Assembly (NCBI GenBank): GCA_964357615.1
Contig: CAYHMC010000010.1
Span: 1 to 44,453, forward strand
Direction: 5' to 3'
From: an uncultured Candidatus Saccharibacteria bacterium
GTDB lineage: Bacteria; Patescibacteriota; Minisyncoccia; UBA6257; JACOXY01
Length of the DNA stretch: 44,453 nucleotides
Shown one piece after another: positions 42,644 to 43,479 of the stretch. Within the stretch, counting starts at the first letter, position 1; every line of letters begins with the position of its first letter. Made by a program: the position numbers and the translations under genes. Under the pieces are notes generated by a model that saw only the letters and a program-made list of their open reading frames with translations, did no database searches and was not told where the DNA came from.

Positions 42644-42710
42644 TCAAAAACCTCTAGTTTTTAAGAAAATGACTAATATAAGCTTTATTTAGTGGGTTTT
42701 TGGGGTGGTC

Positions 42711-42739
42711 TTGCATTTTATCGAAAATTATGGTATAAT
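42711..42739 (+). promoter_or_regulatory. Promoter TTGCAT-N17-(TG)TATAAT driving GC-rich cassette 2
   Basis: Extended -10 TGGTATAAT. Confidence 0.4.
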
Positions 42740-42812
42740 GTAGCCAGAACAAAAAAGCTAGAGTATTGCAATTTCCACCACTTCTAAGTGAAAGAGAGGT
42801 GATAATCGTGCG

Positions 42813-43031
42813 GTGGGATTTCATCGTAGTGAAAGGTCTCGTTTGGGAGGTGCTCGTCGATCTCGGTATCCCGATCACCTGTATCGTGGCCTTTCTGATG
42901 CTCGTGAAGTAGATTCAACCACAACGTCCGGTTCAATGCCGGCCAACGAAAGTGAGGATGACTGCGATGCAGAATCACGAAAAGCGTATCCGCGGAGCAA
43001 AGGGCGACCTTGCCCGTCGGGCGAAGAGTAG
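42813..43031 (+). CDS. Arg-rich 72-aa GTG-start ORF in GC-rich cassette 2; coding status uncertain
   Basis: AGAGAGGTG precedes the GTG. The ORF overlaps the stronger 42952 ORF in another frame. Confidence 0.2.
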   Translation: MGFHRSERSRLGGARRSRYPDHLYRGLSDAREVDSTTTSGSMPANESEDDCDAESRKAYPRSKGRPCPSGEE

Positions 43032-43392
43032 CCCACTCTCGACTCTCTACGGGTTCCTGTGCCAGTGGAACGCGAAATCCGACAGTCAGTTCAATCCGCT
43101 GAAGGAGGGGAACGACAGGGCCTCCGCGCTCTTCGCTCGTCTCGTCTCGGCGGCGGACATGAACACGCTGGTCACTGCTCTCCGCGACCAGATGAAGGAA
43201 GCACGGCTCGGCAACCGCTGGTTCTGGGACGAGCTTCACGGTCACGTCGGTGACCTGCTGAACGCCAACCGCGTCGCTCTCCGCTCTCTGCGGGCCGAAC
43301 TCCGGTTCGCCCTTCCTGCGACGGGCTCGCACCACAACCGCTATGTGCGGCGTCACAGCTCCGGCTTTCCCGCTACTGCTCGCGCTGCCTAA
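42952..43392 (+). CDS. GC-rich (~62%) hypothetical cytoplasmic protein
   Basis: Pronounced GC3 bias in this frame. It ends 19 nt before a strong terminator. The true start may be the ATG at 42958 or 42970. Confidence 0.5.
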   Translation: MRMTAMQNHEKRIRGAKGDLARRAKSSPLSTLYGFLCQWNAKSDSQFNPLKEGNDRASALFARLVSAADMNTLVTALRDQMKEARLGNRWFWDELHGHVGDLLNANRVALRSLRAELRFALPATGSHHNRYVRRHSSGFPATARAA

Positions 43393-43411
43393 TCGGCAGC
43401 CACTCTAGCCT

Positions 43412-43452
43412 GGGCCCCAGCGACTACTTGTCGCCGGGGCCCTTCTTTTTTA
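43412..43452 (+). terminator. GC-rich intrinsic terminator (GGGCCCCAGCGAC-TACTT-GTCGCCGGGGCCC then TTCTTTTTT)
   Basis: Seen in the sequence. Confidence 0.6.
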
Positions 43453-43479
43453 TAGATTATAGTCTTATAATTTAAATTA

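Follow-up and report, generated by a model that had tools for sequence, protein, structure and literature searches.

Why does a short block rich in guanine plus cytosine (GC), equipped with its own promoter and terminator, stand directly in front of the release factor 2 gene prfB in an AT-rich bacterial chromosome, and what keeps it GC-rich? The question is raised by a stretch of 44,453 nucleotides (nt), contig CAYHMC010000010.1 of assembly GCA_964357615.1 from an uncultured Candidatus Saccharibacteria bacterium, which we call the window. This piece of chromosome has a GC content of 0.36 and also carries a ribosomal-protein operon, secY, an aminoacyl-tRNA synthetase gene and P-type ATPases. 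Its DNA recurs in metagenome assemblies of the 0.1 µm fraction of Hainich groundwater well H41, and the nearest relatives of its release factor 2 (RF2) are Patescibacteria, one of them labelled Candidatus Liptonbacteria. The element in question, hereafter the cassette, appears from the comparisons below as one autonomous transcription unit that codes for protein, measures about 700 nt and immediately precedes prfB. In our view it is best explained, with a probability of roughly one half, as a dispensable and horizontally exchanged accessory unit resembling a phage moron, whose GC content would be fed by a reservoir and by exchange, and we rank this above selection acting in place.

A self-contained transcription unit upstream of prfB

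An initial annotation, made from the letters of the window, had placed here a GC-rich block with an extended -10 promoter and a strong terminator, between a GT2 gene and prfB. Both the block and its neighbours were found as described, with GC at 0.614 over 42808-43445 against 0.362 for the window. The contexts of the nearest RF2 relatives were fetched and searched in six frames with a hidden Markov model (HMM) of the cassette protein. With the copies found by protein searches, the set compared below consists of the window, L084, L085, L088 and L090, in which the large gene is intact, and L087, in which it is decayed. The unit comprises the following features, where SD stands for a Shine-Dalgarno sequence, ORF for an open reading frame, and GC1, GC2 and GC3 for GC at the three codon positions.

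42711 to 42716, forward strand: -35 element TTGCAT, read in the sequence; its counterparts in the alignment are TTGCAA (L087, L084) and TTGACA (L088, L090)
42731 to 42739, forward strand: extended -10 element, TGG plus TATAAT, TGGTATAAT, at a 17-nt spacer from the -35 element; TATAATG is invariant in six aligned cassettes
42746 to 42807, forward strand: 5' leader of 62 nt, GC 0.35, unstructured (folding z = -0.5), with SD GAGG at 42795-42798
42808 to 42912, forward strand: small ORF of 34 codons, GTG to TAG, encoding the hydrophobic peptide (M)RWDFIVVKGLVWEVLVDLGIPITCIVAFLMLVK; SD GAGG 9 nt upstream
42913 to 42966, forward strand: spacer between the ORFs, GC 0.54, with SD AGGA about 8 nt before ATG 42967
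42967 to 43392, forward strand: main ORF of 141 amino acids (P0001), GC1/2/3 of 0.65/0.49/0.75, with homologues whose identity by codon position runs 2 > 1 > 3
43412 to 43450, forward strand: intrinsic terminator GGGCCCCAGCGAC-tactt-GTCGCCGGGGCCC then TTCTTTTTT, with the stem at 43412-43442 followed by a T-run; -27.4 kcal/mol, z = -6.0

The promoter agrees with the earlier description and aligns with those of the five homologous cassettes; transcription would start near 42746. Between the window and L087, 29 of 31 promoter bases are identical despite only 46% identity at the fourfold-degenerate sites of the adjacent prfB, which is good evidence that the promoter is functional. A generic promoter scan did not flag it, because its -35 element matches only three of the six consensus bases. 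Similarly, the terminator was missed by a generic scan because of a mismatch in its stem: the terminator announced by the initial annotation is indeed strong, but the supposed 13-bp GC stem has 12 pairs and one A/C mismatch in its 13 positions. Homologous hairpins sharing a GGCGAC/GTCGCC core, with compensatory changes, occur in L084, L085, L087 and L088, and that of L090 is a different strong hairpin; T-runs follow the hairpins in L084, L087, L088 and L090. Promoter and terminator can be aligned across the six loci. The GC-richness begins at the small ORF and not at the transcription start, the leader being host-like in composition. When the leaders of the window, L084, L085, L088 and L090 were folded, those of L084, L088 and L090 gave stable 5' hairpins (z = -2.5 to -3.1). 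With a promoter of consensus quality, good SD sites, a strong terminator and 5' hairpins in three lineages, the unit is, as predicted from these signals, built for strong expression.

The abrupt jump in composition and the low coverage (cov 2-5 in the names of the ENA contigs) could suggest an assembly chimera or a contaminant binned from a GC-rich organism. However, four assemblies from three samples are concordant across the junctions: the Logan contig L003 is identical to the window over 40978-42869, across the left junction, an ENA contig of 8802 nt covers both junctions, and L086, a contig from another replicate, spans window positions 41977-43302. Moreover, the GC-rich body is joined to a promoter and terminator of host type, and the same arrangement is found in L084, L087 and L088, which come from unrelated projects. 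Chimerism, a concern raised by the initial annotation itself, is excluded by these three contigs and by the same architecture in four other genomes, and an origin as a chimera or binning contaminant is hardly credible. L086 differs from the window at only three positions (42814, 42819 and 42837), all T-to-G and all within the first ten codons of the small ORF; with a contig coverage of about 2 these are probably sequencing artefacts, and they could be population variants.

Two protein products

The main ORF is, by all the signals of its sequence, a protein gene. The 146-amino-acid frame noticed initially is the same frame read from GTG 42952; it has homologues at 38-43% identity, a GC1/2/3 of 0.65/0.50/0.76 and an identity by codon position of 2 > 1 > 3. 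The likely start is ATG 42967, behind AGGA, as in the deposited protein. P0001 is basic (isoelectric point, pI, 11.0) with a C-terminal Arg/Leu helix, and its AlphaFold (AF2) model is a five-helix bundle with a mean predicted local distance difference test score (pLDDT) of 67.

The small ORF, in the same frame as the main one and separated from it by a TAG, was overlooked in the initial annotation and is not among the called genes, but its 34-residue membrane peptide is a true second product. Its GC1/2/3 of 0.60/0.26/0.74 and a grand average of hydropathy (GRAVY) of 1.54 describe a probable single-pass membrane peptide. L087 has a counterpart of the same length and in the same place (2472-2576) with 11 of 34 residues identical, and 5000 shuffles that preserved composition never reached the alignment score of the two. 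The other four of the six cassettes (L084, L085, L088 and L090) lack the peptide. Taken together, the coding status of both ORFs is established by sequence comparison.

The second reading frame proposed initially, an Arg-rich 72-amino-acid ORF at 42813-43031, did not survive: with a GC3 of 0.40 and no counterpart in the related cassettes it is an out-of-frame shadow, and the question of which overlapping frame is expressed falls away. An antisense ORF of 190 amino acids was discarded as well, having the wrong pattern of GC by codon position and no conserved counterpart. The statement that the products carry no recognisable domain holds for both of the genuine ones.

Islands of high GC in AT-rich genomes are frequently RNA genes, and the cassette might be a structured non-coding RNA gene in which the ORFs are chance products of GC-rich sequence. 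The folding of the whole transcript (z = -1.8 in the window and -4.2 in L084) would be in keeping with this. However, when the window and the five homologous loci were searched against Rfam, no family matched at the gathering score, and relaxing the threshold to E = 10 yielded only terminator look-alikes. In addition, the protein signal is clear (conserved motifs, gaps in whole codons, identity 2 > 1 > 3 and GC3 > GC1 > GC2), and the coding regions fold on average no better than their synonymous shuffles, with z values of +0.2, -2.0, +0.6, -1.2 and -3.3 for the five of them and -1.3 and -1.1 for host controls. An RNA gene is thus a very improbable account of the locus.

A rare, clade-restricted protein family

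P0001 belongs to a remarkably small family. A word-indexed search of 5.8 billion clusters returned P0001 alone, and an exhaustive phmmer search of 1.84 billion representatives added P0005 and P0006, at 38-39% identity, the other matches being repetitive proteins; a subsequent profile search gave no further members. Two more (L088:181-555 and L090:7439-7756) were recovered by the six-frame HMM search around RF2 relatives. The L090 member is deposited as a hypothetical protein of a Liptonbacteria metagenome-assembled genome. At L088 the public gene call (69-521) is in the wrong frame, with a GC3 of 0.48 and an Arg/Gly-rich product, and the true member at 181-555 is not in the protein collection. 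Systematic errors of this kind may affect GC-rich genes in AT-rich Patescibacteria, and the rarity of such families would then be overestimated.

The five members have 106-141 amino acids, are basic (pI 9.3-11.0) and share the motif LYGFLCQW...FNPL..GN..A..LF.RL as well as the C-terminal Arg/Leu-rich helix. Gaps in the protein alignments fall in whole codons, and the conserved motifs are protein motifs. The proteins evolve fast, being 29-43% identical among members where RF2 is 74-85% identical. No relative of P0001 was found in Pfam, in the PDB or by fold, and neither the five members nor the peptide had a match in PADLOC. A phage or plasmid origin was rejected, as neither tblastn against phages and plasmids nor two degenerate-pattern scans of IMG/VR produced a relative. 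As far as the searched collections reach, the family is therefore a very rare orphan restricted to one clade, the Liptonbacteria-like Patescibacteria, where five copies are intact and one is decayed. It adds a new small-protein family and a conserved micro-peptide, partly missed by gene callers, to what is known of this clade.

Dispensability and probable movement of the unit

The cassette is flanked by glycosyltransferase genes (GT4/GT2) upstream and by prfB downstream, with ftsE-ftsX beyond prfB in the relatives and no phage genes nearby. Four of the five copies with known context, those of the window, L084, L087 and L088, stand immediately before prfB, while the gene on their other side differs (GT2, a SIS-domain gene or GT9). 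The fifth, in L090, is a complete cassette with a consensus TTGACA-17-TATAAT promoter, a structured leader and a terminator; it is found some 3 kb past prfB in the downstream direction, beyond ftsE, ftsX and a HigA-like gene. The genome with the RF2 most similar to that of the window (83%), L087, has kept the promoter, small ORF and terminator, but its large gene lacks the GFLCQW core and contains an in-frame TAG. Within 4-10 kb of prfB, no copy of the cassette was found in L093, L096, L100 or L104. The decayed copy of L087, the absence from relatives and the site in L090 indicate that the cassette is dispensable and not fixed in place; its dispensability is well established as far as comparative evidence can go. 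Genomes of Patescibacteria thus hold self-expressing cassettes at a recurrent slot before prfB.

There is also an indication that the unit has moved between lineages. L088 and L084 are the closest pair by RF2 (0.85), but of all pairs of cassette proteins theirs is the most dissimilar (0.29), and their promoter subtypes differ. Conversely, the L088 promoter matches that of L090 at 0.72 over 39 nt, and the RF2 of L090 is more distant (0.77). The pattern suggests that whole units have been exchanged or replaced between lineages, on data that are few and saturated, and the history of the cassette appears decoupled from the host tree in this small sample of saturated sequences. In aquifers the commonest reported transfers are those between Patescibacteria, and genomic islands are known in groundwater members of the group (PMC12455944).

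The slot in front of prfB has further peculiarities. In L087 (2995-3081) and L088 (656-760) there is an additional, incomplete copy of prfB ORF0 after the cassette terminator and before the genuine prfB. It consists of the start codon and about 20 codons without the frameshift site and ends in a GC-rich hairpin. The two copies are 0.67 alike, about as alike as each is to any real ORF0, and are not recent duplicates of their own ORF0. They may be a decoy upstream ORF or a recombination scar at the slot. The prfB gene of the window itself starts at ATG 43480 and has a CTT TGA C +1 frameshift site at 43549. Just before that site there is a conserved ACCCGC…GCGGGT hairpin, whose 3' arm supplies an SD-like GGGTGG. 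A TATAAT stands 7-8 nt before the prfB ATG, where no SD is seen (window 43466-43554; L084 about 1150-1238), so the prfB mRNA is probably leaderless.

Other ways of placing the unit here were considered and set aside. It is not an integron gene cassette, since it has its own promoter, a 3' hairpin with a T-run but without the GTTRRRY ends of attC, no array and no intI. Synteny of the GT2 gene was likewise uninformative: of 80 relatives of the upstream GT2, none exceeds 49% identity, and neither prfB nor a member of the P0001 family adjoins any of them.

Why the cassette remains GC-rich

The composition of the cassette is its most striking property. In the window, GC over 300 nt peaks at 0.663 (z = 6.7 against a background mean of 0.353, sd 0.046), and the only comparable block is that following tRNA-Met (z = 5.8). 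GC3 of the large gene in the five lineages is 0.75, 0.72, 0.65, 0.77 and 0.76, against 0.24-0.51 in neighbouring host genes, and its product uses more Arg, Ala and Leu and less Lys and Ile. The age of the divergence can be judged from prfB, whose fourfold sites are 33-46% identical between lineages, with 25-31% expected at random; in the cassette gene, too, third positions have come close to random identity. Over such divergence a neutral sequence should have reached the composition of its host. The GC-richness is therefore being kept up or renewed, and gene import followed by drift does not, on these comparisons, explain it. A GC3 some 25-50 points above that of the hosts after saturation would mean either an unsampled pool of GC-rich genes or a rare case of selection on mRNA composition.

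The explanation that we prefer takes the first course. The cassette would be a self-expressing module, like a phage moron without the prophage, exchanged between related Patescibacteria together with its promoter and terminator, insertion or replacement usually taking place at the slot before prfB. It would owe its GC-richness to residence in, and repeated re-delivery from, an unsampled GC-rich reservoir, which could be Patescibacteria of high GC or the mobile elements of such bacteria. Although the group is otherwise AT-rich, it does include GC-rich members that could act as donors: L104 (ENA ERZ27254728 k141_310110) has 61.5% GC, carries prfB-ftsE next to secY-adk-map, and encodes an RF2 65% identical to that of the window.

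Several observations weigh against this explanation. No homologue was found in any GC-rich genome, virus or plasmid searched, so the reservoir is hypothetical; all copies lie in AT-rich to moderate-GC Patescibacteria contexts, and none was found in the GC-rich L104. The host-like leader (0.35 GC) inside the unit fits selection in situ on the coding sequence better. The incongruence with RF2 is that of five short, saturated sequences and a promoter of 39 nt. As to the mode of insertion, there is no integrase or recombinase gene between GT2 and prfB. The flanking repeats (D2/D3) that were tried as a target-site duplication are at chance level (1173 of 2000 shuffles were as good or better) and are found at none of the other loci, no att site was detected, and the succession of cassette, pseudo-ORF0 and prfB misfits simple site-specific integration. 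Finally, searches by sequence, profile and fold give no clue to function.

The alternative is that the gene is vertical and lineage-specific and that its GC-richness is kept in place by selection on mRNA or codon choice, for example through a stable mRNA that resists AU-directed RNases or toxins, or through codons rare in the host that gate translation by tRNA supply. The control of TTA codons by bldA in Streptomyces is a mirror-image analogue of such gating. In favour of this possibility, four of the five copies with known context are directly upstream of prfB and the fifth is within about 3 kb, GC3 stays at 0.65-0.77 whatever that of the host although prfB fourfold sites are near saturation, and no homologue was found on the donor side. 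The distribution of GC within the unit also agrees with it, the unstructured, untranslated leader being AT-rich and the coding and hairpin parts GC-rich, and the decayed L087 copy being lower in GC within its broken part. Codon usage is inverted relative to the host (AAG 0.90 vs 0.23; CTC plus CTG 0.78 vs 0.09), the cassette mRNAs fold at -0.36 to -0.49 kcal/mol per nt vs -0.22 to -0.26 in host genes, and three of the five folded leaders have stable 5' hairpins. However, neither promoter subtype nor cassette similarity follows the RF2 tree, one copy occupies another locus, and the gene is dispensable. Moreover, no specific conserved fold is seen in the coding region, to judge from the synonymous-shuffle z values given above, and we know of no precedent for such strong selection on the composition of a bacterial protein gene. 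We regard selection in place as a possible but doubtful explanation.

More broadly, the cassette could be described as insulated in composition, its GC-rich make-up being actively kept across saturating divergence either by selection or by a GC-biased process specific to the locus, a proposal that we advance only tentatively. If it is true, selection or a GC-biased process would be acting on one mRNA, for instance to give immunity to AU-directed RNases or toxins or to provide rare-codon gating, and the unit would be an insulated expression cassette of ultra-small, symbiotic bacteria.

Possible roles

Patescibacteria, members of the candidate phyla radiation (CPR), have tiny genomes and depend on other cells, and the accessory cargo that such small genomes choose to carry informs on their way of life. 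For the exchanged accessory cassette proposed here, a role in conflict or interaction (phage exclusion, toxin or immunity functions, contact with a host cell) may be guessed from its fast evolution, dispensability, self-containment and apparent movement as a whole. Such traits are usual in conflict or interaction genes, phage morons among them. By a similar guess, the cytoplasm would be the place of action of the basic protein, perhaps with nucleic acid as its target, and the membrane that of the peptide.

The position next to prfB invites another thought, namely that the protein works with RF2 in termination and that the adjacency is functional. Although synonymous divergence between the lineages is saturated, the cassette immediately precedes prfB in four of them and is close to it in a fifth; its protein is small, basic and helical, and the top Foldseek matches are RF2 chains. 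However, these matches are not significant (E = 2.7, above 2; template modelling score, TM, 0.18, below 0.2), the two genes form separate transcription units with a strong terminator between them, and the cassette gene is decayed in L087 and absent from relatives that keep prfB-ftsE-ftsX. A role with RF2 is accordingly improbable. Derivation of the protein from the N-terminal domain of RF2, hinted at by the adjacency, the ORF0 duplicates and the Foldseek matches, was rejected, as the profile-profile probability from hhalign was 0.2%, a value that also speaks against the functional link.

A toxin-antitoxin-like pair could also be imagined, with the 34-residue peptide as a membrane toxin of type I kind and the basic protein or an mRNA structure as its controller. 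In favour of this, two lineages have conserved the hydrophobic peptide, the unit is self-contained and can be dispensed with, and L087 retains the peptide though its large gene is broken. This last observation cuts both ways: were the large protein the antidote, its loss in L087 should be lethal. Furthermore, the peptide is missing from four of the six cassettes, a consensus scan found no antisense promoter, and there is no PADLOC or Pfam match. We consider such a pair quite improbable, slightly more so than a role with RF2.

Other features of the window

A region of about 190 nt with raised GC (18078-18270) immediately follows tRNA-Met (18005-18077). It ends in a hairpin resembling a terminator (18235-18265), matches nothing in Rfam and contains no convincing ORF; it may be a co-transcribed small RNA or the remnant of an integration site. 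Upstream of it, a SAM-I riboswitch (16882-16982, 62 bits) lies between tRNA-Val (16729-16800) and an ORF of 164 amino acids (17027-17521). Elsewhere, the forward strand encodes at 29203-31797 an 864-amino-acid protein with the shoulder and repeat domains of Major Vault Protein (PF11978, 1.6e-21; PF17795, 3e-13). This gene adjoins a cytochrome P450 gene on the reverse strand (27064-28308), and the block has a GC of 0.42-0.52 over about 28400-31600. It is probably an acquired region, with cargo unusual for Patescibacteria.

Comparison with known systems

The nearest term of comparison is in the window itself. The second GC-rich block (18355-19460, after tRNA-Met), here cassette 1, was said by the initial annotation to have the same architecture as the cassette in front of prfB. 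The layout and the composition do agree, but the agreement does not extend to sequence or to the nature of the families. Both have a promoter of consensus type, that of cassette 1 being a perfect TTGACA-17-TGcTATAAT, a GC-rich coding body, a strong terminator and a membrane-anchored first product, and their third-position composition is the same (A 0.06-0.11, C 0.38-0.44). The two share no sequence, and cassette 1 is a recognisable phage module, unlike the orphan family of one Patescibacteria clade in front of prfB. Its genes encode a 124-amino-acid membrane protein and a 174-amino-acid lipoprotein, whose homologues form an adjacent pair in Synechococcus phage S-SRM01 (49% and 54% identity). 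It matches phrog_24725 at 3.7e-27 and, weakly, phrog_26268, and its lipoprotein matches gp45 of Clostridium phage phi3626, which adjoins gp44. GC3 is about 0.3 in the S-SRM01 homologues and about 0.15 in gp44-gp45 of phi3626 (range in the phages 0.12-0.31) vs 0.69-0.78 in cassette 1. The cassette 1 family adopts the composition of its carrier, and cassette 1 looks like a plain import from a GC-rich carrier. As cassette 1 shows that this genome accepts GC-rich, self-expressing foreign modules, it lends support to an import reading of the cassette in front of prfB.

Compared with the peptides of type I toxin-antitoxin systems (the Hok, Fst and TisB class), the cassette is similar in having a hydrophobic peptide of 34 residues, a compact unit and a structured mRNA. 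It departs from them in lacking a detectable antisense RNA or promoter; moreover, most cassettes have no such peptide, which, where present, would be co-transcribed with a larger gene.

With acquired islets that have not ameliorated, the cassette shares an atypical composition and codon usage, an accessory distribution and a cargo without assigned function. According to the amelioration model attributed to Lawrence and Ochman, an old acquired islet is said to drift to host composition. The cassette differs in that five synonymously saturated lineages all keep a GC3 of about 0.7, with no donor lineage visible.

The closest likeness is to the morons, reportedly described by Hendrix, Juhala and colleagues in 2000 as cassettes of promoter, ORF and terminator that are autonomous, atypical in composition and lodged between conserved genes of lambdoid prophages. 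Unlike them, the cassette is flanked by chromosomal housekeeping genes (GT2 and prfB) and encodes a protein without phage relatives, and its composition is atypical in all lineages, at a conserved insertion slot. Like them, it has its own promoter and intrinsic terminator, as judged from sequence and conservation, and a composition distinct from that of its flanks (GC 0.61 vs 0.35; GC3 0.75 vs 0.25); it is dispensable, present or absent among relatives, and fitted into a tight intergenic slot with its neighbours undisturbed. Thus, the cassette is an accessory unit of a known general kind, and what sets it apart is its lasting GC-richness.

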